Shown here piece by piece: positions 28,485 through 64,000 of a stretch of DNA of 64,000 nt; the first letter of the stretch is position 1; every line of letters begins with the position of its first letter. The notes beneath the pieces are model-generated. The model did no database searches. It was not told where the DNA came from and worked only from the letters and a program-made list of their open reading frames with translations. A program made the position numbers and the translations under genes. Source of the stretch: an uncultured Acidobacteriota bacterium (GTDB taxonomy: Bacteria; Acidobacteriota; Polarisedimenticolia; Gp22-AA2); NCBI GenBank assembly GCA_964384905.1, contig CAYLND010000002.1:669-64668 (forward strand), written 5' to 3'.

Positions 28485-29132
28485 GTGAAAACCTCATACC
28501 GCCTGTTGAGTGCAGGTCTCGTCGGGTTTGTCTGCCTGGCGGCGGCGCCGGCCGCCCCGGAGCAGGATCGGGACGCGGCGCCGGCGGAGAGCCCGCCCGA
28601 CGCGGGCAAGCAGGGGCCCGGCGTCGCCAAGCAGATCTTTCCCACGGAGATGCAGTATCGCATCGGCGTCGAGGATGTCCTGCTCGTCTCGGTCTGGAGG
28701 GACGCGGATCTGACCCGCGAGGTCCCGGTCCGGCCGGACGGCAAGATCTCGCTCCCCCTGATTCAGGACATCGTCGCTGCCGGGAAGACACCCGCGGACC
28801 TCGGGCAGGAGATTCAAGTCCGGCTCAAGGAGTACATGAGCAACCCGTCCGTGACCGTCATCGTCAGGGAGATCAACAGCATCAAGATCTATCTCCTCGG
28901 GGAGGTGGCTCGACCTGGGCCGGTCATGCCGAAGACGCAGATCCGTCTGCTCCAGGCGATCGCCATGGCCGGAGGGCTCACCCCGTTCGGAGGCAAGAAA
29001 AACATCGTCGTCTTTCGCAAGACCCCTTCGGGGGAGAAGGTCATCGAGGTGTCGTACCAGAACATCGTCTCCGGAAAGAAGCCGGACGACGACCTGATCC
29101 TCGAATCGGGCGACACGGTCGTGGTCCGCTGA
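28485..29132 (+). CDS. polysaccharide export outer-membrane protein (Wza/Poly_export + SLBB)
   Basis: Lipoprotein/secreted N-terminus, Poly_export motif region (IGVEDVLLVSVW...PVRPDGKISLPLI) and a C-terminal SLBB-like region (GDTVVV). Confidence 0.8.
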   Translation: MKTSYRLLSAGLVGFVCLAAAPAAPEQDRDAAPAESPPDAGKQGPGVAKQIFPTEMQYRIGVEDVLLVSVWRDADLTREVPVRPDGKISLPLIQDIVAAGKTPADLGQEIQVRLKEYMSNPSVTVIVREINSIKIYLLGEVARPGPVMPKTQIRLLQAIAMAGGLTPFGGKKNIVVFRKTPSGEKVIEVSYQNIVSGKKPDDDLILESGDTVVVR

Positions 29133-29144
29133 GTGAGCGCGCCG

Positions 29145-29176
29145 GGGAGCGGAGGCTCCCGAGGCCCGTGCCTTTT
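29145..29176 (+). terminator. possible Rho-independent terminator after the wza-like gene
   Basis: GGGAGC-ggag-GCTCCC hairpin followed by a CCTTTT tract about 12 nt later. The T-run is short and distant. Confidence 0.25.
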
Positions 29177-29282
29177 CTCCTGCATCGATCGCGTCTCTCC
29201 ACTCCCGTCCTCAGCGCGGCGACGCATGACCCTTTGAGCGCCGACCGGGGCATGCTCGGTCTTCGATAAGGGACTCGGGTCC

Positions 29283-31367
29283 GTGACGTACCGTCTTCGC
29301 GATCTCGGCTGGGACATTCGGAAGGCCATGTCCCTCTCGCCGGGCGAAGGCGTGCGCCGGCTCTCGGGGCGAGCGGTGCGCTACGCCCGGCGTGTCCGAT
29401 ATCGCAGCCGCGCGACCCACCTGAGCGATGCGGACCTGCTGCGTTCCCTGGCGTCCCCGGCCCCATCGGTCGAGGAGCTGGTCGCGCGGCGCCTGGAGGG
29501 CGCGCCCCTGGTGCCCGCGGCTCTGTGCGGCGCCGCCAGCGCTGACAGACTTCGAAGAACGGCACCCGCATCCTGCGAGGCGATCCTGGCGGCGGGGCGG
29601 GCCCTCATGAATGGAGACTTCGACCTTCTCGGATCCGGTCCGGTCCGCCTCGGTCCCGAACCCGACTGGCACTGTGACTTCAAATCCGGCAAGCGCTGGG
29701 ACCGCGGAGTGTATTCCCTCGACATCACCCAGACGCCGAATCGTGGGCACGATTGCAAGGTCCCCTGGGAAATCTCCCGGCTGCAGCATCTCCCGATCCT
29801 GGGCATGGCCTCGTGGCTCGGCGGCGACGTCGCGTTCCGGGAGCGGGCCGTGTCCCACGTCGCCTCGTTCGTCGCGGGCAACCCGGCCTATCGCGGCATC
29901 AACTGGAATTGCACCATGGATGTGGCCATACGCGCGGCGCAGATTCTGGCCTCCGAGGGGTTCCTGCGCGGGGCGGGCGACGATCGGTTCTGGGCCGCGC
30001 TTCTCAAATCCCTGCTCCTGCACGCCCGCTTCATCCGCGACAATCTGGAGAACGGTCCGGTCCGCGGGAATCACTATGTGTCCAACCTCGCCGGGCTGTT
30101 CCTCTGCGGTCTGGGCCTGACGGAGTTCCGGGAGGCCCCGAAGTGGAGGGAGTACGCCCGGGTCAGGCTCCTCGCCGAGATGCGGCGACAGGTCACTCCG
30201 GACGGGCTGGATTACGAGGCCTCGCTCTCCTATCACGCGTTCGTCACGGAAATGTTCCTGTTCCCCGCGCTTCTGGAGTCCGAGCGCGGCGGCTCGTTCG
30301 GCACGCCGTACCTCGAGGGGTTGAGGTCGATGATCGAGGCCGTGGCGATCCTCATGCGCCCCGACGGGACGCTGCCGCAGATCGGTGACAACGACGACGG
30401 TCGGTTCCTGATCTTCTCGCAATACCGTCGCACGCGTCGTGACTGGAGGCCGCTTCTGGTCCTCGGCGCGTATCTGTTCCGCCAGCCGAAGTGGCTCCCG
30501 CTCGCGGGCGACGCCTGGGTGGAGGGCGTGTGGGTCCTGGGCGAGCCGTTCGTCCGCTGGCGCGACTCGCTGCCGCCGGTCGATCCGCCCGCCGGCTTCT
30601 CGAGCCGCGCCTTTCCCGAGGGAGGCATCTACCAGCTGGGCGCCGGCAGCGTCCAGATGGTGGTGGACGCCGGGGGCGTCGGCCAGAGGAACAACGGCAG
30701 CCACGCCCACAACGACACTCTGGCGTTCGACCTGTATGCCTTTGGCCGCGAGATCCTTCCCGATCGGGGCACCGGCGCCTACACCTCGGACCTGACGATG
30801 CGCGACGGCTTTCGCTCCACGCGGGCGCACAATGCGCTGCAGGTCGACGGCCAGGAGATGAATCCGTTCGCGGAAGAGCCGTTCCGGCTGATCCCGGCCG
30901 ATCACCCCCGGGTGCTGCGCTGGCGTGCGGGAAGGCGGTACGTCTATCTGCGCGGCGAGCATTCGGGCTACCGGCGGCTGCCCGCGGCAGTCGTGCATCG
31001 CCGAAGCATCCTGCTGGATCGCCGGACCGGGACCTTCTGGATCGAGGATCGGCTGGAGGGGCGCGGCCGGCACCGATTCGTGGCCAGTTTTCATCTTGCG
31101 CCAGGCTGGACAGTCGAGTCCCGGCAGGACGGATGGACGGCTCGCGGCTCCGAAGGAGGGGTGATCCTCAGCGTCCTGTGGACAGCGCGTCCCGAGCTCT
31201 GCCGGACACGCGTGGAGGAGGATCTCCATTCGCCCTCCTATGGCGTCACCCAGAGTGCCCGAACGGTGCGTTTGGAATGGGAAGGCCCGGTGCCTTGCAG
31301 GCTGCGCTACAGGCTCACCGTGCTCGAGCAGAAGGACGTGCAAGGGGGAACGACCCCGGGCAGATGA
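29283..31367 (+). CDS. heparinase II/III-like (polysaccharide lyase-like) protein
   Basis: 694-aa protein with the layout typical of heparinase II/III-family proteins in EPS loci (alpha/alpha toroid region followed by a beta-sandwich; ...HAHNDTLAFDLYAFGREILPDRGTGAY...). Confidence 0.65.
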   Translation: MTYRLRDLGWDIRKAMSLSPGEGVRRLSGRAVRYARRVRYRSRATHLSDADLLRSLASPAPSVEELVARRLEGAPLVPAALCGAASADRLRRTAPASCEAILAAGRALMNGDFDLLGSGPVRLGPEPDWHCDFKSGKRWDRGVYSLDITQTPNRGHDCKVPWEISRLQHLPILGMASWLGGDVAFRERAVSHVASFVAGNPAYRGINWNCTMDVAIRAAQILASEGFLRGAGDDRFWAALLKSLLLHARFIRDNLENGPVRGNHYVSNLAGLFLCGLGLTEFREAPKWREYARVRLLAEMRRQVTPDGLDYEASLSYHAFVTEMFLFPALLESERGGSFGTPYLEGLRSMIEAVAILMRPDGTLPQIGDNDDGRFLIFSQYRRTRRDWRPLLVLGAYLFRQPKWLPLAGDAWVEGVWVLGEPFVRWRDSLPPVDPPAGFSSRAFPEGGIYQLGAGSVQMVVDAGGVGQRNNGSHAHNDTLAFDLYAFGREILPDRGTGAYTSDLTMRDGFRSTRAHNALQVDGQEMNPFAEEPFRLIPADHPRVLRWRAGRRYVYLRGEHSGYRRLPAAVVHRRSILLDRRTGTFWIEDRLEGRGRHRFVASFHLAPGWTVESRQDGWTARGSEGGVILSVLWTARPELCRTRVEEDLHSPSYGVTQSARTVRLEWEGPVPCRLRYRLTVLEQKDVQGGTTPGR

Positions 31368-31481
31368 GACGCAGGCGCGATCGCCGTTGTGCGATTTTTG
31401 CGCACCGTCCATCTGGTGCACACGCGCGTTACCATACTGTGAAAAGTGAGAGTTAACGGCTTCACGCCTTGAGATTTGCCC

Positions 31482-31509
31482 TTGACACCCCGCTGGATTC
31501 CAGTATATT
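31482..31509 (+). promoter_or_regulatory. candidate sigma-70 promoter TTGACA-N16-TATATT
   Basis: Exact -35 TTGACA (31482-31487) and near-consensus -10 TATATT (31504-31509) with a 16-nt spacer. Located in a low-GC 600-bp intergenic region. Confidence 0.4.
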
Positions 31510-31966
31510 CGACGCAATCTCGAAAGGTTCTCTGATCCCCTGCAAGGGGTTGGTGGGGGCGATCAAGTAGTAGGGTGGACTTTCGGAAAACCCTTCCGCG
31601 AGGTCAGTGCTTCCGAGATTAGTGAGAGGTCATACGCTTCGTGTCGCTTCCGGTCGGGATACAGGAATTGTCTATCAGAATTACGGATTCATTGATATCT
31701 CTAGTAACATTTTTGTGTCTGGTTCAAATAACTGCGGTCCGATTCAAGATGCTTGCGAAATCGCCAGTCCGAAAGCCCGAAGCACGGGGTCGCCGTGTCG
31801 ACACATTTCGATCCACGGCCGTCTCCGTCTGGCACGGCAGCTTCCGGGTTGTCGGGAACAGTGCCGAGCGAAACTCCCGGTGTCTCCGTAAGCGGAATTT
31901 GATCATCACAGGCGGGATCGAAGTATGGATCCCTCCCTTTGACCCGGGCGACACGGTTGTCCTACC
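31510..31966 (+). promoter_or_regulatory. long low-GC structured 5' leader; candidate cis-regulatory RNA or antiterminator loading site
   Basis: About 450 nt between the promoter and the next CDS, at roughly 45-50% GC against about 68% for the window. Several stem-loops are visible (CCCCTGCAAGGGG; CCGTG..N16..CACGG; GGCAC..N23..GTGCC). The ORFs within it show no RBS. Confidence 0.3.
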
Positions 31967-33169
31967 GTGACGTCAAGAAGACCGGTTGTTCCCGCCGCAG
32001 GACGGCGGGTCCTGATACTGCTCCTCGGGACCTGCTTCATTCCCACACTGCCGATCCGCGCCCAGGTCCCCGCCGTGACCGGGCCGACACGCGGCGAGCT
32101 CAAGCTCAGCCTGGGTCTCGGCGGCGGGTACACCAGCAATGCGGCTCTGCGCTCCGACGCAGCGGCCTCGGGCGATTCCATCGCGAATCTTCGCGCCGAT
32201 CTCTCCGAACGTAAGACCAGCGCGCGAACCGACTGGTCGGCCTCCTACGATTCCTTCTACACGAGTTACGGCACCAACAACCAGTTCGACAGCCTCAATC
32301 ACGCCGTCAACTTCGACGGACGCTACCTGGTCACGAGCCGGAGCCACCTCGCGCTCTTCGAGCACTTCTTCTACAGCCGCAATCCTCTTCAGATTGCGAG
32401 CACGACGCCGACCACCGAGACGGTCATTCTGACCCAGCAGACCCACCGCTGGCGGAGCGTCTCCGACGTGGGGTTCGACACCAGTCTGTCCCGGTCGTTG
32501 ACCCTGCTGGCCGGTGTGACGTCCCGGATCGAGCGGATCGATCTGCGCCCGTCCGTCGACACCGACACGTATTCCGGTCGCCTCGGGATCCAGAAGCAGA
32601 TCGGCAAGAAGGACAGCATCGCATCCAGCTACGCCTACTCGCGATTCGACTTTCACGACGCGACGATCCCGAACTCCGCAGCCAATGGAGTGGACGCGTC
32701 GTGGACGCACGGCGCGCCGGCCGGTCCGGCCTGCACGTTGTCCGCCGGCGTGTCGAAGGTCACGCGGGAGGGGGCCAGCCAGAATCTGGTGGTGGCCGCG
32801 GCGAGTCTGCACCATCCGTTTCGTCGGCTCGATTTCGTGTCGGATTACCGCCGAAGCCTGATGGCCGACATCGGAGTCGCGACCCTCACGGTGGCGCAGA
32901 ACGCCAGTGCCGGCATCTCCGGAACGGTCGGGCGCTCGTCCACGCTCGGCGTGTTCGCGGAGTACGGAACCCGCGAGTCGGTCCTGGACACGGGAGACCG
33001 ACAGGCGCTCCGGTACACCGGCGGCGCCGTGCGCGGCTCGATCGCGCTCAATCCATGGCTGAGCCTTTCAGGCGAGGCGCGGCGGCGCAAGCAGATCGGT
33101 CTCGAGGGCACGGTGGAGGATCTGACGGTCGACACGGTCTTCATGAATCTGGTCTTTCAGGTCTTCTGA
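31967..33169 (+). CDS. outer-membrane beta-barrel protein, function unknown (EPS-locus associated)
   Basis: Signal peptide (RRVLILLLGTCFIPTLPIRAQ), alternating amphipathic beta pattern and a C-terminal Phe (LVFQVF). GTG start. Confidence 0.55.
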   Translation: MTSRRPVVPAAGRRVLILLLGTCFIPTLPIRAQVPAVTGPTRGELKLSLGLGGGYTSNAALRSDAAASGDSIANLRADLSERKTSARTDWSASYDSFYTSYGTNNQFDSLNHAVNFDGRYLVTSRSHLALFEHFFYSRNPLQIASTTPTTETVILTQQTHRWRSVSDVGFDTSLSRSLTLLAGVTSRIERIDLRPSVDTDTYSGRLGIQKQIGKKDSIASSYAYSRFDFHDATIPNSAANGVDASWTHGAPAGPACTLSAGVSKVTREGASQNLVVAAASLHHPFRRLDFVSDYRRSLMADIGVATLTVAQNASAGISGTVGRSSTLGVFAEYGTRESVLDTGDRQALRYTGGAVRGSIALNPWLSLSGEARRRKQIGLEGTVEDLTVDTVFMNLVFQVF

Positions 33170-33203
33170 TTCGAAGCCGCCCGGGTCCCCTGGCGGGGAC
33201 CTG

Positions 33204-33728
33204 ATGAAAGGACAGTCGATGCTCTGGTACGCGATCCAGACGAAGCCGAACAAAGAGAGCGCGGTGCGCGCGACCCTGGACCAGGAGGGGATCGAGGTCT
33301 ATTGCCCGCGCATCCGGAGACCCCTCCGTGGCGTGCGGGGTGCGTGGAAGGAGGCGGCCCTTTTTCCCGGCTACCTGTTCGCCCGTTTCGACTTCGTCCG
33401 GGATTACGCGCGGCTGCGTTGGAAACCGGGGCTGGTCAGAGTGGTGATGAGCGGCGCAACGCCCCTGGTGGTCACGGAAGCGACCCTGGGGTCGGTCCGG
33501 CAGATGGAGAAAGAGGGAATCCGTGGACTGTTCCGGCCGGTCCAATGGAAACCGGGGACCCCGGTGCGTGTGACCGAAGGCCCTTTCAGTGGGTTCGAGG
33601 GACGGGTCGACATGACCCTCAGGGGTGGCGACAGAGTTCGCATCTTGCTCGAGCTTTTCCGGCGGCAGGCCGCTCTGGAGTGCGCTCCCGAGTCGATCCA
33701 GCCGCTGGCTTCTGCAGGCGGTCGATAG
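33204..33728 (+). CDS. NusG-paralog transcription antiterminator (RfaH/UpxY-like) with a KOW domain
   Basis: N-terminal NGN pattern (LWYAIQTKPNKESAVRATLDQEGIEVYCPRI...FPGYLFARF) and a C-terminal KOW-like region (GTPVRVTEGPFSGFEGRV). Confidence 0.75.
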   Translation: MKGQSMLWYAIQTKPNKESAVRATLDQEGIEVYCPRIRRPLRGVRGAWKEAALFPGYLFARFDFVRDYARLRWKPGLVRVVMSGATPLVVTEATLGSVRQMEKEGIRGLFRPVQWKPGTPVRVTEGPFSGFEGRVDMTLRGGDRVRILLELFRRQAALECAPESIQPLASAGGR

Positions 33729-33758
33729 AGGCAAGTCGTTTCGCCTCTATCAATTCGA

Positions 33759-34424
33759 ATGGGGAGCAAGAGGCTCTCGATGGCGGAGCTCCATCCGGTG
33801 ATGAACGGCACAGAGACGACGACCACGATGCCCGTGTCCATGACTGCGCCACCGAAGGCGGTTCCACAGATCGGCGGAGCTGGTCCCTTGTGGCGTAGCC
33901 TGCTTTTCCCGTGCAACGGCCAGCGGGCGGTTGAATTCGGCAGCAACGGCACCAGTCTGTTCGCTTCGCTGCGCCAGGCAGGAGTCCGGATCGAGCCGGG
34001 CCAGCCTGACGAGGGAAAGATCGCGGAGCTCACCTTCGACCTGGTCCTGGAAGATCGAACGAACGGCAACCGGCCCGTCCGAACCGAGCGGGCCCGGTCG
34101 CTCCTGGATCGTGGCGGTCGATGGGTCGTGGCCCTGGAGAGAAAACGCTGGATCGGTCTGGCGCGTCGGCGGGTCATGGGACGACTCCGTCGCGGCGGCT
34201 TCGAGGCGGTCGAGACCTTCTACGCCTACCCGTCGCTGCGGGCGCCGCGCATGCTGGTGCCGCTCGATCGGCCGGGGCCATTCCAATACTTCCTGGGTCT
34301 CGCGACCGGTGTGCGCGGGCCGCGCCAGCGCCTGCTGGCACTGAGCGCCCGCTGTCTGTGCGCCGTGCGTCTGCACCACCTGTTTCTGTCCAACCTGATC
34401 GTGGTGGCACGGAAGGCTCGATGA
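33759..34424 (+). CDS. hypothetical protein (221 aa), translationally coupled to the downstream kinase-like gene
   Basis: Only coherent frame in this interval. Stop overlaps the next ATG (ATGA). No motif recognised; the start is uncertain. Confidence 0.4.
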   Translation: MGSKRLSMAELHPVMNGTETTTTMPVSMTAPPKAVPQIGGAGPLWRSLLFPCNGQRAVEFGSNGTSLFASLRQAGVRIEPGQPDEGKIAELTFDLVLEDRTNGNRPVRTERARSLLDRGGRWVVALERKRWIGLARRRVMGRLRRGGFEAVETFYAYPSLRAPRMLVPLDRPGPFQYFLGLATGVRGPRQRLLALSARCLCAVRLHHLFLSNLIVVARKAR

Positions 34425-35440
34425 TCGACGCGCTGTCCGAGACCTACAAGGAGCTGGCGGCCGAGGCGATGGGGCTGCCACGCCACAAGATCTCGGTGTT
34501 GATGGTGCACCGCCCGCACGACGACAAGAACTACGCCGATCAGTCGGTGTACTTCTTCTTCCTCCCGCGCGAGCGGTTTCCTTCGGCGGTCGGGAAGGTG
34601 GGGTTCGATGCGGCCGGCGCCCACTACCTCGAAAGAGAGCACCGAGGCCTCCTGTCGCTGAGCCGGCACGGTCAGACGCTCCCCGCGGCATCGGTGCCGC
34701 GTCTTCTCCTCTACCGGGAAGTGGCCGGACGTCAGGTGCTGCTGCAGAGCGCGCTGCGTGGCGAAAAAGTCTCGACCTGGCTGACACCTGGCATGCGGCT
34801 CAATGGACGCCTCGAGCGCTTCCTCGCCTGGGCCGCGGACTGGAGCTCCGCGCTCGGGCGCGCCACCCGAATCGATGGACCGGCGCTGGTACCGGGCTGG
34901 ATCGAAGAGTTCTGCGTGAAGCTGGACCGGACGAATCGCTCTCAGGCGCTCCTGGACAAGGCGGCGAAAACGGTGTGGGACGGGTTCGGGCAGGCGTTCC
35001 CGACCGTCCTCGCCCACGGCGACTTCTGCGGCGAGAACATCCTGGGCGACGGCGAGCGTTACGGTGTGATCGATTGGGAGCTTTGCGACGAGGTGTCGGT
35101 CCCGACCTACGACATCCTGGATCTCTGCCTGTGGGTCGCGCTGCGGACCGAAGGGCACGTGGTGCCGGATCCCTTCACCGCGCTCGAGAGACTTCTGAAC
35201 GGACGCGACCCGCTGGCACGCGAGCTGCGTCGCACGCTGGGTCGATACACTGCGGCGATGGGCCTCGAGCGGAAACTCCTGCCGCCGCTCCTGACCATTG
35301 CCTGGGCCGGTCATTGCCTGAAGAAGTTCCGCCACCTGCAGAGGGACGAGACCGGACACTTCGCGCGCGCCCGGGTCGCGGTGCGCAAGATCCTCGATAC
35401 GCCCGCCGAGATCCTCTCGGGAGAACGCGAGGCGGGATGA
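34421..35440 (+). CDS. phosphotransferase enzyme family (APH/choline-kinase-like) protein
   Basis: Kinase-like fold motifs (HGDFCGENIL...IDWELC; Brenner motif and DxD). Confidence 0.7.
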   Translation: MIDALSETYKELAAEAMGLPRHKISVLMVHRPHDDKNYADQSVYFFFLPRERFPSAVGKVGFDAAGAHYLEREHRGLLSLSRHGQTLPAASVPRLLLYREVAGRQVLLQSALRGEKVSTWLTPGMRLNGRLERFLAWAADWSSALGRATRIDGPALVPGWIEEFCVKLDRTNRSQALLDKAAKTVWDGFGQAFPTVLAHGDFCGENILGDGERYGVIDWELCDEVSVPTYDILDLCLWVALRTEGHVVPDPFTALERLLNGRDPLARELRRTLGRYTAAMGLERKLLPPLLTIAWAGHCLKKFRHLQRDETGHFARARVAVRKILDTPAEILSGEREAG

Positions 35441-38684: not shown

Positions 38685-39568
38685 CCACCGCCTCGGCGCG
38701 TCTGGACCGGTGGCGGCAGGCCCTTCTCCTGCCGGGCGAAACCGATCTGATCGCGTCCGCGATGAGCGAGCTGTCCGACTACTTCGGCATCAGCCGCGGC
38801 GAAGCGGAGAGCCGCGCCCGGGACGCCGTCCGCCGGACGCGGGACGTCTGGAACGCGGCCCCCCGTGGCACCCTTCAGGAAATCGAGGAGTTCTACAACA
38901 CCTCCGACGACTACATCTTCGAGCTGGTCCACTGGCACGCGACGCTCTCCGAGGCGGAGACGCTGGCGAACGTGGCGGCTCTCGAGGTCGCCGAGCGGAT
39001 GGGGGTGCGGCGGTCTCTCGATTTCGGCGGCGGCGTGGGGGCCAATCTGCTGCTGTTCGCGACCGCCGGAATCGAGGTCACCGACGCCGACATCTCGGAT
39101 CCGCTCCTGGCGTTCTCGCGCTGGCGTCTGGGTCGGCGCGGCGTGCCCGCGTCCTTCATCGATCTCAAGACCGACGTGCTCCCGGGCGGACGGTTCGACA
39201 TGCTGACCGTGATGGATGTCCTGGAGCACGTCCCGGACCCCGTGGCCACCCTCGGCTCCGCCCTGCAGGCGCTCGCGCCGGAGGGTCTGGCGGTCGTCGC
39301 GCTCGGGTTCGGCTGCGACCCCGATCATCCGATGCATGTCGTGCACTCGCCGCGGCGGTTTCTCTCCGGGGTGCGCGCCCTCGGGCTGGAGCGGGACGAT
39401 CCTCCCGAGCTGCGAGAGTTCTCCTTCATCCGGACGTATCGGCGGGTCGACCGCAGGCCTGCGGTCAACCGCCTGGTGCTGGCCCAGGACACGATCCGGG
39501 AGGGAGCGCGCGGCATGATGCGCTTCGCGGCGACGGTGCGCCGCCGGATCTCGGGAGGAGTCGCGTGA
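38681..39568 (+). CDS. class I SAM-dependent methyltransferase
   Basis: Motif I-like LDFGGGVGANLL and motif post-I/II (DVLEHV). GTGA overlap with the upstream gene. Confidence 0.7.
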   Translation: MTTASARLDRWRQALLLPGETDLIASAMSELSDYFGISRGEAESRARDAVRRTRDVWNAAPRGTLQEIEEFYNTSDDYIFELVHWHATLSEAETLANVAALEVAERMGVRRSLDFGGGVGANLLLFATAGIEVTDADISDPLLAFSRWRLGRRGVPASFIDLKTDVLPGGRFDMLTVMDVLEHVPDPVATLGSALQALAPEGLAVVALGFGCDPDHPMHVVHSPRRFLSGVRALGLERDDPPELREFSFIRTYRRVDRRPAVNRLVLAQDTIREGARGMMRFAATVRRRISGGVA

Positions 39569-57311: not shown

Positions 57312-58330
57312 AGCTCGTCATCCAGATCCCCTGCCTGAACGAGGAGGCGACGCTGCCCATCACGCTGACCGGCCTGCCGCGCGCCCTGCCTGGCGTGGAC
57401 TCCATCGAGGTCCTGGTGATCGACGACGGCAGCACGGACGGAACGGTGGAGGTCGCGCGGCGGATGGGGGTCGACCATGTGGTGAGGCTGCCCCGACATC
57501 AGGGGCTGGCCGCCGCGTTTCGCGTCGGGCTGGAGGCGAGCCTGAAGCTGGGAGCCGACATCATCGTGAACACCGACGCCGACAACCAGTACGAGCCCCG
57601 CGATATCGGGCGTCTGGTGCAGCCGATCCTCGACGGTCGTGCCGACATGGTCGTCGGCGACCGCCAGGTTCAGGAAATCCGGCACTTCTCGGCGATCAAA
57701 AAGCTGCTGCACCGGGTCGGGGACTGGGTGATGGTGCGGCTCTCCGGAATCGAGCTTCTCGATTCCACCAGCGGATTCCGGGCGTACAGCCGGGAAGCGG
57801 CGCTGCGGCTCAACGTCTTCTCGAAGTTCACGTACACGCTGGAGACGCTGATCCAGGCCGGCAAGAAGCATCTGACCGTGGCGCACGTGCCGGTGCGGGT
57901 CAACGAGAAGCTGAGAGAATCCCGTCTCTTCCCGGGCCTCTGGTTCTACCTGAAACGATCGGCCAGCACCATGGTCCGGATCTACTCGATGTACGAGCCC
58001 CTGAAGATCTTCTCGTATCTGGGTGCCCTCGTCGGTGGCGCCGGAGTGCTGCTGCTGGTGCGCTTTCTCTATTACACCCTGGTCTCCGCGGGACCGGTCG
58101 GCAAGATCCAGTCCCTCCTGGCCGGCGTCGCGCTGATCGCGATGGGGCTGCTGCTCGGTCTGATCGGGGTCGTGAGCGACCTGATCGCCGCCAACCGCAC
58201 GCTGGTGGAAGACATCCAGTATCGGGTGCGCCGGATGGAGCTGCAGGCTCCCGGTCACGAGGCCGAAACATCCGGGACGGCGCGCCTGGAAGCCCTCCCT
58301 CCGAAGGCGCTCGCGGGGAGAGACCGATGA
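57308..58330 (+). CDS. GT2 polyprenol-phosphate sugar synthase-like glycosyltransferase (DPM-synthase/ArnC/GtrB-like) with C-terminal TM helices
   Basis: IQIPCLNEE...VIDDGSTDGT...NTDADNQYEP (DXD) catalytic domain followed by two C-terminal TM helices. GTGA overlap. Confidence 0.8.
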   Translation: MKLVIQIPCLNEEATLPITLTGLPRALPGVDSIEVLVIDDGSTDGTVEVARRMGVDHVVRLPRHQGLAAAFRVGLEASLKLGADIIVNTDADNQYEPRDIGRLVQPILDGRADMVVGDRQVQEIRHFSAIKKLLHRVGDWVMVRLSGIELLDSTSGFRAYSREAALRLNVFSKFTYTLETLIQAGKKHLTVAHVPVRVNEKLRESRLFPGLWFYLKRSASTMVRIYSMYEPLKIFSYLGALVGGAGVLLLVRFLYYTLVSAGPVGKIQSLLAGVALIAMGLLLGLIGVVSDLIAANRTLVEDIQYRVRRMELQAPGHEAETSGTARLEALPPKALAGRDR

Positions 58331-59460
58331 CCCGCCGGACGATCCTGGTGACCGGCGGCGCCGGATTCATCGGCACGCACCTGACATCGGCCCTGATCGA
58401 GAAAGGCCATCGGGTGCGGGTGCTCGACGTCCTGGATCCGCAGGTCCACGGCTCCGGCCCCGGCCGGCCGAGCGCTGAAGACATCGAGATGATCCGGGGG
58501 GATCTGCTGGACCCCGACGCGCTGAGTCGCGCCCTGGCCGGCGCGGAGGTCGTGTTCCACCTGGCGGCCGCCGTGGGGGTGGGGCAGTCGATGTACGAAG
58601 CGGCGCGCTATACCCGCGTCAACAGCGTCGGGACCGCGATGCTGATGGAACGAATCACCGCGCCGGGGTCGCGGGTGGAGAAGGTGATCGTTGCCTCCTC
58701 GATGTCGATCTACGGCGAGGGTCGGTATCGCTGCGCCGCGTGCGGTCCCGTGGCGCCCGAGCTTCGCAGCCGGGAGCAGCTCCTCGATGGACGATGGGAG
58801 CCGCCCTGTCCCGGCTGCGGGGAGCGCCTCGAGGCCGTGCCCACCGACGAGTCCAAGCCGCTGAATCCGACCTCGGTCTACGGGGTGACCAAGCGCAGCC
58901 AGGAGGAGACCGTCCTGGTGATGGGCCGGTCGTACGGAATCCCGGCGGTCGCGCTCCGCTATTTCAACGTCTACGGCCCCGGCCAGGCCCTCTCCAATCC
59001 GTACACCGGCGCGGCGGCGATCTTCGCGAGCCGTCTCCTCCACCAGCAGCCCCCCTGCCTGTTCGAGGACGGGGAGCAGGGACGCGATTTCACGCACGTG
59101 AGCGACATCGTCCAGGCGAATCTTCTGGCCATGGAGAGGAGCGAGGCCGACGAGCAGGCGCTCAACGTCGGGACCGGGGTCCTGACCTCGATCCTGGATC
59201 TCGCGCGCGGTCTGACCCGGAAGCTGGCTCCGGACGACGGAGTGGCGCCCAGAATCCTGGGAACGTTCCGGGAGGGCGACATCCGGCACTGCTACGCCGA
59301 CATCGCGCGGATCCGGACGCTGCTGGGGTACGAGCCCAGGGTGAGGATCGAACAAGGGTTCGACGGCCTCGCCGCGTGGGCCCGCACGCAGGAGTCGGTG
59401 GACCGGTTCGATCGGGCGGCCGCCGAGCTGGTTTCGCGCGGCCTGGTGATTGGAAGATGA
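58327..59460 (+). CDS. NAD-dependent epimerase/dehydratase (SDR, UDP-sugar 4-epimerase-like)
   Basis: TGGAGFIG Rossmann motif and YxxxK (YGVTK). ATGA overlap. Confidence 0.85.
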   Translation: MTRRTILVTGGAGFIGTHLTSALIEKGHRVRVLDVLDPQVHGSGPGRPSAEDIEMIRGDLLDPDALSRALAGAEVVFHLAAAVGVGQSMYEAARYTRVNSVGTAMLMERITAPGSRVEKVIVASSMSIYGEGRYRCAACGPVAPELRSREQLLDGRWEPPCPGCGERLEAVPTDESKPLNPTSVYGVTKRSQEETVLVMGRSYGIPAVALRYFNVYGPGQALSNPYTGAAAIFASRLLHQQPPCLFEDGEQGRDFTHVSDIVQANLLAMERSEADEQALNVGTGVLTSILDLARGLTRKLAPDDGVAPRILGTFREGDIRHCYADIARIRTLLGYEPRVRIEQGFDGLAAWARTQESVDRFDRAAAELVSRGLVIGR

Positions 59461-59477
59461 AAGGAGACAACGGGACG

Positions 59478-60968
59478 ATGTTCAGAGCGCTGGTGACCAA
59501 CCCGCCCTGGCCGGGAGACGGCTTCGGGGCGCGATCCTCGGTCAGGTGGCCGCACAAGCGGAAGGACAAGAAGCTCGAGTACCCGATTTTCCTCTCGTAC
59601 GCCGTCGCCCTGACCCGGGCGGCCGGCGTCGAGACCTCCTTCCTGGACGGCGTGTGCGATGAGCTGGGGACCGAGGCGTACGCGGCCGAGGTCGATCGAC
59701 TCGCGCCCGATTTCATCGCCATGGAGTGCTCCACCCCCTCCATCGACCACGACCTCGCGTCGGTGCGCCGCATCAAGGAGCGCCGGCCCCGCGTCTTCAT
59801 CGCCCTGATGGGATCGCACGCGACCTATTTCCACCAGCAGCTCCTCCAGGAGAACCCGGAGGTGGACGCCATCATCCGCGGCGAGTTCGAGATCACCATC
59901 CGTGAGATCGCCCTCGCCCTGAAGAACGGGGCGCCGCTTTCGGGAGTCGCCGGTCTGACGTTCCGTGAGGGTCCATCGATCCGGGTCAATCCGGAGCGGC
60001 CGTTCGACATCGACCTCGACACCTGGCCCTACCCGGCCCGGGACATCGTGCCGATCGGGAAGTACCAGACCGCCCAGTACCAGGGGCGCAACGGCACCTT
60101 CATGCTCTCCAGCCGTGGCTGCCCCTACCGGTGCACCTTCTGCCTGTGGCCCGGCACGATGGTCGGACGGGACTTCCGCGCCCGCCGGCCGGAGTCGGTG
60201 GTCGACGAGATGGAGCACCTGGTGAACCACTACGGAGTGGACGACATCTATTTCGACGACGACACCATGACCATCGATCGCGAGCGTCTTCTGGAAATCT
60301 GCCGGCTGATCCAGAAGCGCGACCTCAAGGTCCACTGGATCGCCATGGGCCGGGTCGACACGGTGGACGAGGAGCTTCTGAGCGAGATGCGCAAGGCCGG
60401 GTGCGACAACATCTATCTCGGGGTGGAGTCGGGCTCGCCGGAGATCCTGAAGCGTCTCAAGAAGGGCGTCCAGCTGCCCCAGGTCGAGCGCGCCTTCCGG
60501 ATCGCCCGGAAGGTCGGCGTCAAGACCCAGGCCTTTTTCATGCTGGGTGGGCCTGGAGAAACCCAGGAGACGCTGAAGGAGACGATCGAGTTCGCCGTCC
60601 GTCTGGACCCCGACAACGCCCAGTTCGCCGCGGCGGTCCCGTACCCGGGGACGGAGATGTACGAGGAGTCCCTGCGCAAGGGATACCTGAAGGCCAGCAG
60701 CTGGGAGGACTACGCCGCCCGGGACATCGTGCTGGAGACCGAGACGCTGTCCCGTCTCGACCTGGAGAAGGCCCGTCTGGAGGCATACCGCCGCTTCTAC
60801 CTCAGGCCCCGCTTCATCCTGCGCACGGCGCTGCGTCTGACGAGCCTGCGCGAGGTCCGTCGGGTCTTCCGGGGAACGCTGTCGATCGTCAGCCGGCTGA
60901 TCTACTTCTCCAAGAACGTGAAGAGGAAGGCACGGGGGACGCCGCCCGGCGCCTTGGAGCATGCCTGA
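59478..60968 (+). CDS. cobalamin (B12)-binding radical SAM protein (second copy)
   Basis: AAAGGAGA RBS 10 nt before the ATG at 59478; an alternative ATG at 59457 overlaps the epimerase stop. B12-binding-like N-terminus and a radical SAM core CPYRCTFC. Confidence 0.8.
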   Translation: MFRALVTNPPWPGDGFGARSSVRWPHKRKDKKLEYPIFLSYAVALTRAAGVETSFLDGVCDELGTEAYAAEVDRLAPDFIAMECSTPSIDHDLASVRRIKERRPRVFIALMGSHATYFHQQLLQENPEVDAIIRGEFEITIREIALALKNGAPLSGVAGLTFREGPSIRVNPERPFDIDLDTWPYPARDIVPIGKYQTAQYQGRNGTFMLSSRGCPYRCTFCLWPGTMVGRDFRARRPESVVDEMEHLVNHYGVDDIYFDDDTMTIDRERLLEICRLIQKRDLKVHWIAMGRVDTVDEELLSEMRKAGCDNIYLGVESGSPEILKRLKKGVQLPQVERAFRIARKVGVKTQAFFMLGGPGETQETLKETIEFAVRLDPDNAQFAAAVPYPGTEMYEESLRKGYLKASSWEDYAARDIVLETETLSRLDLEKARLEAYRRFYLRPRFILRTALRLTSLREVRRVFRGTLSIVSRLIYFSKNVKRKARGTPPGALEHA

Positions 60969-60970
60969 GG

Positions 60971-62122
60971 ATGACCGTCTGCTATTGGGGAACCTACGAC
61001 AGCGAGTATCCGCGCAATCGGATTCTCATGGCGGGTCTCAGGGCCAGCGGCGTCGAGGTGCGCGAATGTCACTTCCCGCTCTGGAAGGACACCGCGCAGA
61101 AAGTGCGGCAGGCGCGCTCGGGATGGGCGCGGCCCGGACTGATCCTCCGGTGGGCGCGGGCCTACGTCACCCTCTCGGCGCGCTTCCTGGTCTCGCCACG
61201 CCCGGACTTCTTGTTCGTCGGCTACTCGGGTCACTTCGATGTGTTCCCGGCCTGGCTGCTCTGCCGCGTGCGGCGCGTCCCGCTGATCTTCGACGCCTTC
61301 CTGAGCCTCTACGACTCGATCGTGCTCGATCGAGGCGCCCTGGCGCGGCGCGGATTCAAGGCGAGGCTCCTGGCCTGGGTGGATCGCAACGCCTGCCGTC
61401 TCGCCGATCGTGTCCTCCTGGACACGCGCTCGCACGCCGAGTTCTTCCGCGAGACCTTCGGCCTGCCCGCCGAGAAATTCTGGGTGCTCCCGATCGGCGC
61501 GGATGACCGCGTCTTCCGTCCCGATCGAGGCGCGTCGCGGAATGGCCGCCCCTACACCGTGCTCCACTTCGGACGCTATATTCCCCTGCACGGCCTGGAG
61601 ACGGTGGTCCGGGCGGCCAGGCTGCTGGAGGACAGGGGCGCCGCATGCCGGTTCCTGATGGTGGGCGATGGCGAGGAGAGAGCGCGCATCGAGATCCTGG
61701 CCCGGCAGCTCCGGTTGCGCAGCGTGGAGTTCCGCGCCCCCGAGACTCCGGAGCGCCTGGCCAGGACGATGCGCGAGGCCGATCTCTGCCTGGGGATCTT
61801 CGGGGAGACCGGCAAGGCCTCCCGGGTGATTCCGAACAAGGTGTACGAGGCGATGGCGGCCGGGAAGCCGGTCATCACCGGCGACTCTCCCGCCGCCCGG
61901 GAGCTGCTGACGAACGAGGCGGACTGCCTGCTCTGCAGCCGAGGGGATCCCGGGGCGCTGGCGGACGCGATCCTGCGGCTCCGGAACGACGCCGCCCTGG
62001 CGGAGCGTCTCGCGCTCGCGGGCCGGAAGCGGTTCCAGGAGAAGGCCGCTCCCGACGTGATCGGCCGGCTGCTCGTCGAGCGGCTCGAGGGATGGAAAGG
62101 GCATCATGACCGCGCGGCTTGA
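60971..62122 (+). CDS. glycosyltransferase family 4 (GT-B)
   Basis: C-terminal GT1/GT4 pattern (ADLCLGIF...IPNKVYEAMAAGKPVITGD). Confidence 0.75.
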   Translation: MTVCYWGTYDSEYPRNRILMAGLRASGVEVRECHFPLWKDTAQKVRQARSGWARPGLILRWARAYVTLSARFLVSPRPDFLFVGYSGHFDVFPAWLLCRVRRVPLIFDAFLSLYDSIVLDRGALARRGFKARLLAWVDRNACRLADRVLLDTRSHAEFFRETFGLPAEKFWVLPIGADDRVFRPDRGASRNGRPYTVLHFGRYIPLHGLETVVRAARLLEDRGAACRFLMVGDGEERARIEILARQLRLRSVEFRAPETPERLARTMREADLCLGIFGETGKASRVIPNKVYEAMAAGKPVITGDSPAARELLTNEADCLLCSRGDPGALADAILRLRNDAALAERLALAGRKRFQEKAAPDVIGRLLVERLEGWKGHHDRAA

Positions 62123-63551
62123 ACGAAGCACGCGATCGGAATGGACCTGGGTGATCCTGCTCCTGGGGCTGGCGCTCGCGTTGCGCGTCGGGTTCGTGTT
62201 TTTCGAGCAGCCCGGTTTCTATTTCGAGGACTCGCTCGACTACGACCACGCCGCGCGGGCGTTCCTCGAGACCGGGCACTTCTACGCCAAGTATTACCGG
62301 TTCCCGCTCTACCCGCTCGTCATGGCGGCCAGCTACAGGATGTTCGGGACGGGCCTGACCCCTTTCCGGATCATCCAGGCCCTGTTCGGGACCGCGACCT
62401 GCTTGTGTGTCTGGGTCCTCGGCCGCCGGCTCTTCGGCGTCCGCGCCGGGCTCCTGGCGCTCCTCGGTATGGCCGTCTTTCCGGTTCAGGTGGTCCTGGC
62501 TGGAATCGAGTATCCCGTGCTCCTCGGAACGTTCCTGATCTGGGGAGTCCTGACGCTGCTCGCTGGCGACCCGGCGGAGGCCGTCCATCGCACCGCCCGC
62601 CTGATCCTGATCGGAGCGGGAGTCGCCATCTCCGCCATGCTGTTCGAAGGGGGATGGGTGCTCGCTCTCTTCATCTGCCTGTGGAGCTATTTCCGGCCGC
62701 CTGCGGGACGTGTCGGCCGGCGCTCGGTGGGCATCGTCGCGCTCTCGTTCGTCGTGGTCATGTCGCCCTGGCTTTACGTCATGAGCGAGAGCGGCGACTA
62801 CAGGCAGCTGATTCTGCGCCCCGGTCTTCACCTGCCCTCGGCCCCCGGGGTGGAGCCACCCCTCTGGGAAGGGAGCGGCGAGAACCTGCTCGTGTCCAAG
62901 CTGTCGGGCCTGGCGCGAAATCCGTGGTGGACGGTGCGGTATGCCTGGGGCGAGTTCATCCACTTCTGGAATCCTTATCCCGACCGGCTCACCTCGGCCG
63001 ACGAGGCCTTTCGGGAGAAACTCCATGAGAGCGACGCGCGCATGACCGTCGACAATTCTCTGGTCAGCGATCGTTCTCGATGGCTCTACGCGGCGGGATT
63101 CGGGGCGCTGCTCGTCGCCGCGCTCATCGGGGGACTGGTGGCACTGCGAGCCGTTCCGGGCTCCGGCCTGGTGACCGCGTGGCCGGTCATGCTGGCGGCC
63201 TGCTACGCTCCGTTCTTCACGCAGATGCGCTACCGCATCCCCGCGGACCCCGCGTTCATTCTCCTGGGAGCCTTCGCAGCGGACCTGACCCTGAAGACGT
63301 CGCTGTGGCGCGAGCTTCTCGCGTCGCTGAAGGCCCTCTGGGAAGGATGGAAGCGGATCGCGGAGAAGATCGCGGCGGTGCAGACGCTGATTCTGCTGTT
63401 TCTCCTGTTCGTCGCGGGGATGGGTCCGATCTCCCTGTTGATGAGATGCTTCCGCAGGGACCCGATGCAGTCTCCGAAGGCTCCCGGATCGTTCTGGGCC
63501 GTGCGGGAGCGCACCCGCGAAAGGATGGAAGAGTGTCTGAAACAATTCTGA
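62106..63551 (+). CDS. GT-C-fold membrane glycosyltransferase (PMT/ArnT-like)
   Basis: ~11 TM helices with a first periplasmic loop containing FYFEDSLDYDHAARAF (acidic loop typical of GT39/GT83). Overlaps the upstream gene by 17 nt. Confidence 0.6.
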   Translation: MTARLERSTRSEWTWVILLLGLALALRVGFVFFEQPGFYFEDSLDYDHAARAFLETGHFYAKYYRFPLYPLVMAASYRMFGTGLTPFRIIQALFGTATCLCVWVLGRRLFGVRAGLLALLGMAVFPVQVVLAGIEYPVLLGTFLIWGVLTLLAGDPAEAVHRTARLILIGAGVAISAMLFEGGWVLALFICLWSYFRPPAGRVGRRSVGIVALSFVVVMSPWLYVMSESGDYRQLILRPGLHLPSAPGVEPPLWEGSGENLLVSKLSGLARNPWWTVRYAWGEFIHFWNPYPDRLTSADEAFREKLHESDARMTVDNSLVSDRSRWLYAAGFGALLVAALIGGLVALRAVPGSGLVTAWPVMLAACYAPFFTQMRYRIPADPAFILLGAFAADLTLKTSLWRELLASLKALWEGWKRIAEKIAAVQTLILLFLLFVAGMGPISLLMRCFRRDPMQSPKAPGSFWAVRERTRERMEECLKQF

Positions 63552-63564
63552 GCGAGAGGCGAGC

Positions 63565-64000
63565 GTGAACATCCTGGGAATCTCCTGTTTCTATCACGAC
63601 TCCGCCGCGTGTCTCATCCAGGACGGCCGACTGGTCGCAGCGGCTTCCGAGGAGCGCTTCACCCGCAAGAAGCACGACGAGGGCTTCCCTCATCAGGCCA
63701 TTCGGTACTGCCTGAAGGCGGGAAGGATCTCCGAGAAAGATCTCGACTACGTGGGGTTCTACGACAAGCCTTTCCTGAAGTTCGAGCGGCTCCTCTCCAC
63801 GTATCTTTCGACGTTCCCGCGGGGATTCCGCTCCTTCTCCAAGGCGATGCCGGTCTGGCTGAAAGAGAAGCTCTGGATTCCCCAGATGATCAGGAAAGAG
63901 CTCAAGTACGAGGGGAAAATCCTGTTCACCGAGCATCATCTGTCACATGCCGCCAGCGCCTTCCTGGTGAGCCCCTTCAGGGAAGCGGCGATCCTCACGG
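63565..64000 (+). CDS. carbamoyltransferase (NodU/CmcH family), N-terminal part; continues past the window end
   Basis: GTG start with a GAGAGG RBS. The N-terminus VNILGISCFYHDSAACLIQDGRLVAAASEERFTRKKHD is the hallmark of NodU/CmcH O-carbamoyltransferases. There is no stop within the window. Confidence 0.8.
   Translation, partial: MNILGISCFYHDSAACLIQDGRLVAAASEERFTRKKHDEGFPHQAIRYCLKAGRISEKDLDYVGFYDKPFLKFERLLSTYLSTFPRGFRSFSKAMPVWLKEKLWIPQMIRKELKYEGKILFTEHHLSHAASAFLVSPFREAAILT

Follow-up and report, generated by a model that had tools for sequence, protein, structure and literature searches.

A probable Wzx/Wzy-dependent polysaccharide locus with GT-C glycosyltransferases and radical SAM enzymes in uncultured Polarisedimenticolia

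Acidobacteriota rank with the most abundant bacteria in soil, and their polysaccharides aid soil aggregation and carbon storage. Several described systems resemble parts of the locus studied here, a run of 29 genes (g1-g29) at positions 28485-64000 of a 64-kb stretch of contig CAYLND010000002.1 from an uncultured Acidobacteriota bacterium (the whole stretch is called the window below). Operons controlled by RfaH, UpxY or LoaP combine a long leader with a specialised NusG paralogue. Class-3 OPX proteins (for outer-membrane polysaccharide export) act with a separate beta-barrel (PMC9603273, PMC9601211, PMC12819527). Among radical S-adenosylmethionine (SAM) enzymes, the diol dehydratase AprD4 does not bind cobalamin and shares similarity networks with the B12-radical SAM enzymes (PMC12931638), and together with the NADPH-dependent reductase AprD3 it deoxygenates a sugar (PMC5461906). 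For HpnJ, contraction of the ring in a lipid-linked glucosamine has been proposed (PMC13459092), a chemistry that is itself unproven.

We consider it likely that our locus directs the Wzx/Wzy-dependent, Wza/Wzc-type biosynthesis and export of a complex surface or extracellular polysaccharide in soil Polarisedimenticolia 'gp22', with tailoring by GT-C glycosyltransferases and radical chemistry. The observed gene content, domain families, folds, synteny and conservation suggest three modules, namely cytoplasmic assembly (g22 with the GT2 and GT4 glycosyltransferases), what by analogy with the Gtr and Arn systems would be periplasmic branch addition (g24 with four GT-C proteins), and radical tailoring. 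An initial annotation of this DNA had proposed a framework of Wza, Wzc, Wzx and an initiating transferase, and matches to hidden Markov models (HMMs) confirmed all four; the Wzx/Wzy-type pathway that it named stands for these components, while Wzy was seen only in relatives, past the window end. Its three radical SAM enzymes were recovered, each with an intact CX3CX2C motif, and its 'three or four' GT-C glycosyltransferases became four, two by Pfam and two by AlphaFold and Foldseek. Pfam placed every domain class that it named above the gathering score, except for the GT-C candidates g8 and g18. The B12-binding and SPASM assignments survived HMM searches, the GT-C candidates did not prove to be transporters, and no evidence emerged that the locus is several independent transcription units of unrelated function.

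Gene map, transcription, export and assembly

GC content is 64-71 % both inside and outside the locus, and base composition thus gives no sign of recent horizontal acquisition. Raw lists of open reading frames (ORFs) were crowded with spurious frames because of this high GC, and a third-codon-position GC frame plot was used to resolve the genes. By this plot, coding on the + strand is uninterrupted from 28485 to 64000 and 29/29 genes lie on that strand, the last (g29) being truncated by the window end. On identical metagenome contigs (Logan SRR12313484 and SRR12313480), a gene caller run independently placed the same boundaries for g19-g24, and gene boundaries and lengths also match for the orthologues in the related loci L003 and L088, again from independent gene calls. 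One start was revised: the second radical SAM gene with a B12-binding-type domain, placed at 59478 by the initial annotation, most likely begins at 59457, where it forms an ATGA overlap. From g3 onward, intergenic gaps are ≤36 nt. Seventeen four-base ATGA or GTGA overlaps were counted between g5 and g26, where the initial annotation had counted 15, plus one of 8 bases and one of 17 bases. Four-base overlaps are the usual operon signature in high-GC genomes; their number here follows from the length of the operon and is no anomaly in itself, the length of the run being the unusual part.

The closest genomes are metagenome-assembled genomes (MAGs) of Acidobacteria 'gp22' / Candidatus Polarisedimenticolia, in which g26 is 82-90 % and g29 86-93 % identical, and no cultured representative of Polarisedimenticolia was found. 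The locus is collinear across Polarisedimenticolia MAGs, down to ~50 % protein identity. In GCA_035764505.1 (L092 and L093), where the GT-C proteins are about 50 % identical, the order g1, g3-g8, g10-g25 is preserved. This genome lacks the heparinase g2 and the methyltransferase g9, its OPX gene and the homologue of g3 overlap, and it has an additional HTH_17 gene and a fifth GT-C (MptA_B-like). Identity in this genome is 79 % for g15 and 85 % for g20, compared to 53-69 % for the glycosyltransferases, 49-61 % for the GT-C proteins and 29 % for g3, and g20 is 85-94 % identical across relatives. By these comparisons the radical SAM enzymes are among the most constrained genes of the locus. The left boundary at 28485 is right, since L090 shares the upstream transglutaminase-like, AraC and glyoxalase genes and then continues with g1-g10. 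An extra 700-aa ORF lies between the glyoxalase gene and g1 in L090 (2697-4799) and is absent from the window. Past the point that corresponds to the window end, L088 and L003 continue with the full carbamoyltransferase, DUF5989, a GT2-GT4 fusion, a GT4, a UDP-glucose dehydrogenase and a Wzy_C protein, which extends the operon in relatives by at least 9 kb, to a total of at least 41 kb.

Four features may bear on the control of the run.

31375-31392, + strand: terminator-like hairpin followed by TTTTT, just past g2 (consensus scan only)
31482-31509, + strand: sigma-70-like promoter, TTGACA-16-TATATT (11/12 consensus match)
about 31516-31966, + strand: 5' leader of ~450 nt, from the promoter to g3
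33204-33728, + strand: g4, specialised NusG paralogue (RfaH/UpxY/LoaP-like processivity factor; Pfam NusG 1e-14 plus KOW)

The claim of one very long coupled operon holds for g3 onward, whereas g1 and g2 are set apart by the terminator-like site and the conserved promoter. Both lie in the 599-nt gap between g2 and g3, where GC falls to about 50 %. The promoter is identical in L090, and 31450-31549 is 95 % identical to that relative, compared to 79-85 % in the flanking coding DNA. Therefore g1-g2 probably has its own transcription unit, and the run probably comprises two, with the main operon starting near 31516; no second sigma-70-like promoter was found between 34 and 64 kb. The g4 product has the NGN + KOW architecture and is encoded inside the long operon, although it scored under every family cutoff (UpxY 72.9 vs 100, RfaH 72.4 vs 144.5 and LoaP 42.5 vs 125 bits). 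The promoter and the first ~50 transcribed bases (31450-31560) are 95 % identical to L090, and the early leader holds the hairpin-forming CCCCTGCAAGGGG, which, on a comparison of three sequences, might serve the NusG paralogue as a site of recruitment or pausing. An Rfam scan of the whole window returned zero matches at gathering thresholds, and thus no known riboswitch or leader RNA.

The export, initiation and flipping genes are as follows.

28485-29132, + strand: g1, short OPX (Wza-like) exporter of 215 aa (Pfam Poly_export 6e-23, one SLBB, signal peptide)
29283-31367, + strand: g2, heparinase II/III-like polysaccharide lyase (Pfam Hepar_II_III_C 2.7e-40, Hepar_II_III_N 5.8e-24)
31967-33169, + strand: g3, secreted 400-aa protein (signal peptide; C-terminal ...FQVF)
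33759-34424, + strand: g5, 221-aa protein with a C-terminal transmembrane (TM) helix (no Pfam or NCBIfam match)
35437-36945, + strand: g7, MOP-superfamily flippase, Wzx-like (Pfam MatE above cutoff, MurJ; about 9 or more TM helices)
53346-55082, + strand: g22, fusion of a sugar-1-phosphate nucleotidyltransferase, a left-handed beta-helix and a monotopic phosphoglycosyltransferase (Pfam NTP_transferase, Hexapep, Bac_transf 1e-67)
55119-57311, + strand: g23, Wzc-type co-polymerase/BY-kinase, PCP-2a (Pfam Wzz, GNVR, AAA_31; TIGR01007 165.8 bits vs cutoff 108)

The exporter g1 lacks the C-terminal Wza pore helix, as its SLBB match extends to residue 214 of 215, and in lacking this outer-membrane-spanning helix it resembles class-3 OPX proteins. 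Its best NCBIfam matches are PEP-CTERM export and then EpsY, both under cutoff. A candidate outer-membrane beta-barrel partner is g3, because it is secreted, ends in Phe, weakly matches the PEP-CTERM-associated outer-membrane protein TIGR03016 (31.7 bits vs cutoff 90.9) and has a homologue that overlaps the OPX gene in L092. An XrtA/PEP-CTERM system was considered and rejected, as the PEP-CTERM models (export, ChnLen, TyrKin, stp2/3, EpsB_2 and TIGR03016) all scored under cutoff and no exosortase was present among the scanned window genes. The small protein g5 is conserved in L089, L090 and L092, and the L092 orthologue of g7 matches Polysacc_synt. The g22 fusion matches NCBIfam EPS_sugtrans at 281 bits (cutoff 295.6) and mannose-1-P guanylyltransferase at 157 bits, and would couple the making of the activated first sugar to its transfer. 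This fusion is kept at 578 aa in all relatives seen. No Wzy polymerase was found within the window genes; a 490-aa Wzy_C protein lies ~9 kb past the corresponding point in L088. The Wzy_C family also covers WaaL-type ligases, and the polymerase, possibly a ligase, is predicted to be encoded beyond the window end in this lineage.

The cytoplasmic glycosyltransferases and decoration genes lie between and after these.

34421-35440, + strand: g6, APH-family kinase-like protein (Pfam APH 1.5e-12)
38681-39568, + strand: g9, class I SAM methyltransferase (Pfam Methyltransf_23/12/11)
39565-40521, + strand: g10, GT2 glycosyltransferase (Pfam)
40514-41308, + strand: g11, CE4 polysaccharide deacetylase (Pfam Polysacc_deac_1 3.8e-30)
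41305-42306, + strand: g12, GT2 (Pfam; best NCBIfam EpsD at 201 bits, under cutoff)
42303-43220, + strand: g13, GT2 (Pfam)
43217-44011, + strand: g14, class I SAM methyltransferase (Pfam Methyltransf_11)
45132-46064, + strand: g16, GT2 (Pfam)
49686-50639, + strand: g19, GT2 of the ordinary kind (Pfam)
52129-53349, + strand: g21, GT4 (Pfam)
60971-62122, + strand: g27, GT4 (Pfam)
63565-64000, + strand: g29, carbamoyltransferase, truncated at the window end (relatives have 578 aa; Pfam Carbam_trans_N 6.7e-36)

Pfam tallies seven GT2 enzymes (g10, g12, g13, g16, g19 and g24 among them) and two GT4 enzymes. It also bore out the heparinase, the antiterminator-like NusG, the two methyltransferases, the deacetylase, the APH-like kinase and the carbamoyltransferase of the initial annotation, and full-length orthologues of g29 are present in L003 and L088. 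At the level of speculation, a polymer that contains uronic acid and amino sugar would fit the UDP-glucose dehydrogenase of the relatives, the heparinase-like lyase and the deacetylase.

GT-C glycosyltransferases and radical SAM enzymes

Four GT-C proteins and one candidate donor synthase make up the second module.

36942-38684, + strand: g8, membrane glycosyltransferase of predicted GT-C fold (AlphaFold2 pLDDT 88, pTM 0.89; Foldseek)
46061-47689, + strand: g17, GT-C, PMT_2/GT22-like (Pfam PMT_2 33.8 and Glyco_transf_22 31.8 bits, each exceeding its cutoff; at least about 8 TM helices)
47686-49689, + strand: g18, membrane glycosyltransferase of predicted GT-C fold (AlphaFold2 pLDDT 86, pTM 0.89; Foldseek)
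62106-63551, + strand: g28, GT-C, PMT_2 (Pfam PMT_2 29.6 bits vs cutoff 26.1)
57308-58330, + strand: g24, polyprenyl-phosphate sugar synthase-like GT2 of the DPM1/ArnC/GtrB/AglJ type (nearest solved relatives DPM synthase 5mlz and ArnC 9bhc)

The locus thus encodes four GT-C fold proteins, g17 and g28 by Pfam and g8 and g18 by predicted structure. Neither g8 nor g18 has a Pfam or Protein Data Bank match by sequence; their families are small (58 and 61 clusters) and confined to this lineage, and AlphaFold models were built from alignments of these families. For g8, the best Foldseek matches were STT3, AglB, PglB, DPY19 and AftA (E 3.5e-9 to 1e-6), and also ArnT, whereas g18 matched ArnT 5f15 best (E 4.8e-7), then STT3, PglB, ALG9/12 and AftB, in both cases with a probability of 1.00. 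The two families are remotely homologous (hhalign 92.5 % probability), and the conserved DE of g18 aligns with the DD of g8 in the first loop. In that first extracytoplasmic loop, acidic motifs were found in all four proteins: D61-D62 after TM1 in g8 and D215-E216 in g18, where conservation was examined for these two and showed D62 and D215 to be invariant, E41-D42 and D45-Y-D47 in g28 (ED..DYD after TM1), and E78-E79 in g17. A MAG labelled Candidatus Dormibacteraeota by NCBI holds close homologues of g8 and g18 (P0128/P0188), and all other labelled relatives with such homologues are Acidobacteria or Polarisedimenticolia; the Dormibacteraeota label may reflect a binning or taxonomy error, or transfer.

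Two further identities for these proteins were examined and rejected. N-oligosaccharyltransferases (STT3/AglB/PglB) are defined by a WWDxG motif in the periplasmic domain, and g8, despite having oligosaccharyltransferases as its best fold matches, has no WWD or WxDxG motif. Neither g8 nor g18 is the missing Wzy, since both are GT-C proteins (ArnT/STT3-like) and the relatives have a separate downstream Wzy_C gene.

The initial annotation had also read 57308-58330 as a polyprenol-phosphate-sugar synthase-like GT2, which the solved relatives, the NCBIfam matches and two C-terminal TM helices (residues 233-251 and 271-289) uphold. The best NCBIfam matches of g24 are AglJ, PpgS, dolichyl-P-hexose transferase and ArnC, with scores under every specific equivalog cutoff. 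It is the sole GT2 of the DPM1/ArnC type in the locus; g19 was considered as a second such synthase and ruled out, as its nearest relatives are ordinary GT2 enzymes. From the predicted folds and the presence of g24, and by analogy with the systems compared below, we infer that the GT-C proteins would use polyprenyl-phosphate-linked donors.

The third module consists of three radical SAM genes and, beside the last of them, a gene for a short-chain dehydrogenase/reductase (SDR).

44021-45124, + strand: g15, radical SAM enzyme with a SPASM/twitch-type C-terminal domain (Pfam Radical_SAM 3e-21, SPASM 1.1e-15)
50636-52132, + strand: g20, radical SAM enzyme with an N-terminal B12-binding-type domain (Pfam B12-binding 40.3 bits, Radical_SAM 93.5 bits)
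59457-60968, + strand: g26, radical SAM enzyme with an N-terminal B12-binding-type domain (Pfam B12-binding 59.7 bits, Radical_SAM 101.3 bits)
58327-59460, + strand: g25, GalE-like extended SDR of the 4-epimerase clade (solved relatives 6wjb, 4zrm, MoeE5 and WbpP)

In g15 the SPASM match reaches 58.1 bits against a cutoff of 21.5, and the radical SAM motif is C39x3C43x2C46. Its five C-terminal Cys (299, 317, 358, 361 and 362, in a protein that ends at residue 367) follow the pattern C299x12Gx4C317; C358xxC361C362, compared to seven Cys in the full SPASM auxiliary-cluster motif, and g15 may hold a single, twitch-like auxiliary cluster. Its nearest solved relatives are BlsE, which decarboxylates a glucuronate by a radical route, SkfB and BtrN, all with weak E-values.

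The corresponding motifs are C224x3C228x2C231 in g20 and C222x3C226x2C229 in g26, the latter invariant in 20 aligned homologues. The best NCBIfam model for both is HpnJ, which matches over nearly the full length at 245 and 282 bits, respectively, well under the cutoff of 577.6; no hopanoid genes were seen among the scanned window genes. The models of the BchE, ApyD and AprD4 families match next, and among solved structures AprD4 is nearest to g26, at 1.8e-37 across the radical SAM core. A recent tandem duplication of a GT2-radical SAM-GT4 block (g19-21 vs g24-27) is not supported, as g20 and g26 are 36 % identical but the flanking glycosyltransferases are barely related.

The description of g20 and g26 as cobalamin-binding is upheld at the level of the Pfam domain and is weakened by the cobalamin-free AprD4 as closest solved relative of g26; AprD4 binds no cobalamin, and therefore a match to the Pfam B12-binding domain is no proof of cobalamin use. 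The C-methylation suggested by the initial annotation becomes one of at least three plausible chemistries, as the best HMM is HpnJ and the nearest structure AprD4: from sequence, C-methylation, deoxygenation and rearrangement would all be plausible for g26 and g20.

The SDR g25 carries a 37-residue insertion (residues 132-168; window 58720-58830) with C136xxC139 ... C161PxC164, and these four Cys are invariant in orthologues of three phyla (Acidobacteriota, Omnitrophota and Anaerolineae). A search of 1.8 billion cluster representatives showed the insertion to be the mark of a large SDR subfamily, in many members of which the Cys ligands are replaced (CxxH) or missing. This replacement and loss weakens the idea of the insertion as a dedicated electron-transfer partner of the radical SAM enzyme, and it is probably a structural Zn-ribbon, not a redox partner.

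Homologues of g26 number >3,400 at E ≤1e-20. Beyond the acidobacterial clade (78-87 % identity) the next are 51-57 % identical, and the labelled ones belong to Omnitrophota, Bathyarchaeota and Chloroflexi. Homologues at 49-57 % identity, around 52 %, lie in glycan loci of Omnitrophota, Anaerolineae and Bathyarchaeia. An Omnitrophota exopolysaccharide (EPS) locus has the same GT2-SDR-radical SAM order followed by a GT4; a UDP-glucose dehydrogenase directly precedes these genes, and no GT-C is close by. In Anaerolineae loci the order is the SDR, two GT4, the radical SAM gene and then a methyltransferase and Wzx, and in a Bathyarchaeota genome a g26-type radical SAM gene is followed by a GT2. Among the 32 cross-phylum loci with enough flank, a g25-type SDR (54-58 % identical to g25, counted at 45 % identity or more) lies ≤7 kb upstream in 15, and a GT4 is present in 22. 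In some Omnitrophota loci (L086, L078-L080 and L084) the g26 homologue is surrounded by many g15-like and g26-like radical SAM genes in tandem, with up to seven g15-like copies in L086.

Proposed pathway and competing explanations

From these data we infer the substrates, the order of the steps, the antitermination mechanism and the radical chemistry as follows. The short unit g1-g2 would supply the OPX exporter and the lyase, with g3 as putative barrel partner of g1 in the style of a class-3 OPX translocon. The promoter at 31482-31509 would start a transcript of >32 kb (at least 41 kb in relatives) with a leader of ~450 nt, along which the NusG paralogue g4 would keep RNA polymerase processive, and stop/start overlaps would couple the translation of most genes. 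The repeat unit would be begun by the fusion protein g22 on polyprenyl phosphate and lengthened in the cytoplasm by six GT2 and two GT4 enzymes; its decoration would fall to both methyltransferases, the deacetylase, the carbamoyltransferase and the kinase-like protein. Wzx (g7) would then flip the unit, the downstream Wzy_C protein of the relatives would polymerise it, and Wzc (g23) and the OPX protein would export the product. Meanwhile, g24 would make a polyprenyl-phosphate monosaccharide, and g8, g17, g18 and g28 would add periplasmic side branches from such lipid-linked donors, in a manner like that of Gtr and Arn. The three radical SAM enzymes would modify sugars through radical chemistry. 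For g26 and its neighbouring SDR g25 we would put first (a) C-methylation, if cobalamin is bound, then (b) dehydration and reduction in the style of AprD4/AprD3 to a deoxysugar, and last (c) an HpnJ-like ring rearrangement. The heavily decorated, uncharacterised glycan predicted by the initial annotation is a reasonable expectation from this gene content.

Several observations weigh against this account. The window contains no Wzy gene, and the polymerisation step rests on relatives, all of which are metagenome-derived. The beta-barrel identity of g3 is unproven, being read from its sequence features; g4 scores below each specialised-NusG family cutoff, and an ops-like element was not found in the leader among the three sequences compared. 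No lipid-linked-monosaccharide flippase of the GtrA or ArnE/F type was recognised in the locus. Cobalamin binding by g20 and g26 is a prediction, and the nearest solved relative of g26 binds none; the pairing of SDR and radical SAM genes is present in only about half of the cross-phylum loci.

The initial annotation's leading idea, that g20 and g26 are classical cobalamin-dependent C-methyltransferases (of the GenK, GenD1 or MoeK5 type) adding methyl branches to sugars within an otherwise standard EPS locus, is in our view possible, if doubtful. Both proteins pass the Pfam B12-binding (PF02310) cutoff of 32.1 bits with the CX3CX2C motif intact, and C-methyltransferases are the biggest characterised group of B12-radical SAM enzymes, some of them using carbohydrate substrates (PMC12931638). 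However, none of their best models (HpnJ, BchE and also AprD4, the best solved structure) is a methyltransferase, the PhpK, HpnR, KedN5 and tryptophan methyltransferase families score lower, and the conserved SDR neighbour suits a redox-coupled reaction equally well or better.

The main rival, which we judge unlikely, is that the locus is a composite, in which Wzx, Wzy, Wza and Wzc make an ordinary EPS and g24 with the GT-C proteins, perhaps also the radical SAM enzymes, forms a co-transcribed Arn/Gtr/PMT-like system for another acceptor, such as lipid A, a lipoglycan, or envelope or S-layer proteins. The nearest structures to g8 are oligosaccharyltransferases (STT3, AglB and PglB) and the C-mannosyltransferase DPY19, and its C-terminal globular domain matches that of AglB, although the WWDxG motif is lacking. 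Likewise, g18 is nearest to ArnT, a lipid A modifier, and g24 to AglJ, ArnC and PpgS, all serving non-EPS acceptors, yet the locus has neither an Arn-type aminotransferase nor a formyltransferase. Relatives differ in how many GT-C genes they carry (one extra in L092); however, these genes are interleaved and translationally coupled with the cytoplasmic glycosyltransferase, Wzx and Wzc genes, in an order kept to ~50 % identity.

That the radical SAM genes are unrelated passengers (maturases of ribosomally synthesised peptides or of cofactors) or decaying relics is very improbable: the best NCBIfam matches of g15 are indeed tungsten-cofactor maturase, AhbD, NirJ and sactipeptide maturases, all far under cutoff, but the radical SAM genes are among the best conserved of the locus, they overlap or abut glycosyltransferase genes with gaps of ≤9 nt that leave no space for a precursor-peptide gene, and g26 homologues lie among glycosyltransferases in four phyla.

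Besides the polysaccharide pathway that we favour for this locus, a broader suggestion can be made, which we hold tentatively and think less probable than the pathway itself. The enzyme g26, often with the Zn-ribbon SDR g25 and GT2/GT4 enzymes, and maybe also with g20 and g15, would form a widespread, uncharacterised tailoring module that makes a chemically new monosaccharide (deoxy, ring-contracted carbocyclic or C-branched) by radical reaction on a nucleotide- or polyprenyl-linked sugar in Acidobacteriota, Anaerolineae, Omnitrophota and Bathyarchaeia, with lineage-specific GT-C proteins installing the product in our locus.

Upstream of the locus, the window holds genes of other functions. 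The cluster at 12560-21461 looks like an extracellular electron-transfer module; it contains three multihaem c-type cytochromes, a fourth radical SAM gene of the window and an MtrB/PioB-type outer-membrane porin.

2044-2670: TMEM175-type potassium channel homologue
9357-12556: GAF histidine kinase with a sigma-54-dependent response regulator
12560-13717, - strand: multihaem c-type cytochrome
15436-16809, + strand: multihaem c-type cytochrome
16806-17933: radical SAM gene
17944-19071, + strand: multihaem c-type cytochrome
within 18048-21461: MtrB/PioB-type outer-membrane porin (Pfam 1.4e-65)
21496-23811: qNOR-type nitric oxide reductase (NorB cytochrome-c-like and COX1 domains)

Comparison with described systems

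Conserved across Polarisedimenticolia, the locus likely specifies a major surface polymer. Constraint is stronger on its radical SAM enzymes than on its glycosyltransferases, and the g26 family comprises thousands of proteins in the glycan loci of several uncultured bacterial and archaeal phyla. If the radical reaction were solved, glycobiology would gain a new type of sugar modification, and a large share of the 'B12-radical SAM' dark matter would acquire a function. In a literature that was incompletely searchable, we found no relevant B12-radical SAM enzyme in exopolysaccharide, capsule or glycan loci, which is weak evidence of absence.

The secretion side resembles the EPS pathway of Myxococcus xanthus, which likewise has a short OPX protein (EpsY being the second-best NCBIfam match of g1), a Wzx flippase and a Wzc-type kinase; the initiating transferase and glycosyltransferases of our locus match the EpsZ, EpsD and EpsE models, and a barrel candidate gene is likewise near the OPX gene, overlapping it in L092. 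However, all of these matches are under the equivalog cutoffs, and we know of no radical SAM enzyme, GT-C enzyme or NusG paralogue in the Myxococcus EPS locus. In its regulation the locus recalls the Bacteroides capsular loci with UpxY and the RfaH- and LoaP-controlled operons, where a specialised NusG paralogue also heads a very long glycan operon with a long 5' leader. It differs from these in that g4 is the second gene and not the first, in that g4 stays under each family cutoff, and in that no ops-like element was identified in the leader.

The Gtr (GtrA/B/C) and Arn (ArnC/ArnT) systems likewise combine a DPM1/ArnC/GtrB-type GT2 carrying C-terminal TM helices with ArnT/PMT-like GT-C proteins. 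In our locus, by contrast, four divergent GT-C proteins (five in one relative) accompany one synthase, no GtrA or ArnE/F flippase is recognisable, and the genes lie inside a Wzx/Wzy operon to which they are coupled.

For the radical chemistry two parallels stand out. As with AprD4 and AprD3, which perform the C3' deoxygenation of apramycin, g26 adjoins a protein of NAD(P)-dependent oxidoreductase fold in a sugar context, but it reaches only 152 bits against the NCBIfam AprD4 cutoff of 500, its N-terminal domain does not align with AprD4 and instead matches Pfam B12-binding, and g25 falls in a GalE-like epimerase clade. The HpnI/HpnK/HpnJ pathway to the hopanoid cyclitol ether also combines a GT2, a deacetylase and this type of radical SAM enzyme, presumably acting on a lipid-linked sugar. 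Here the scores are under half of the equivalog cutoff, hopanoid genes are lacking, and the deacetylase is of CE4, a different family from HpnK. Set beside these systems, the logic of export, regulation and assembly is conventional and all components belong to known superfamilies; what we did not find described in the literature open to our search is the combination of genes, together with a conserved HpnJ/AprD4-like radical SAM enzyme and its SDR partner in the glycan loci of several uncultured phyla.

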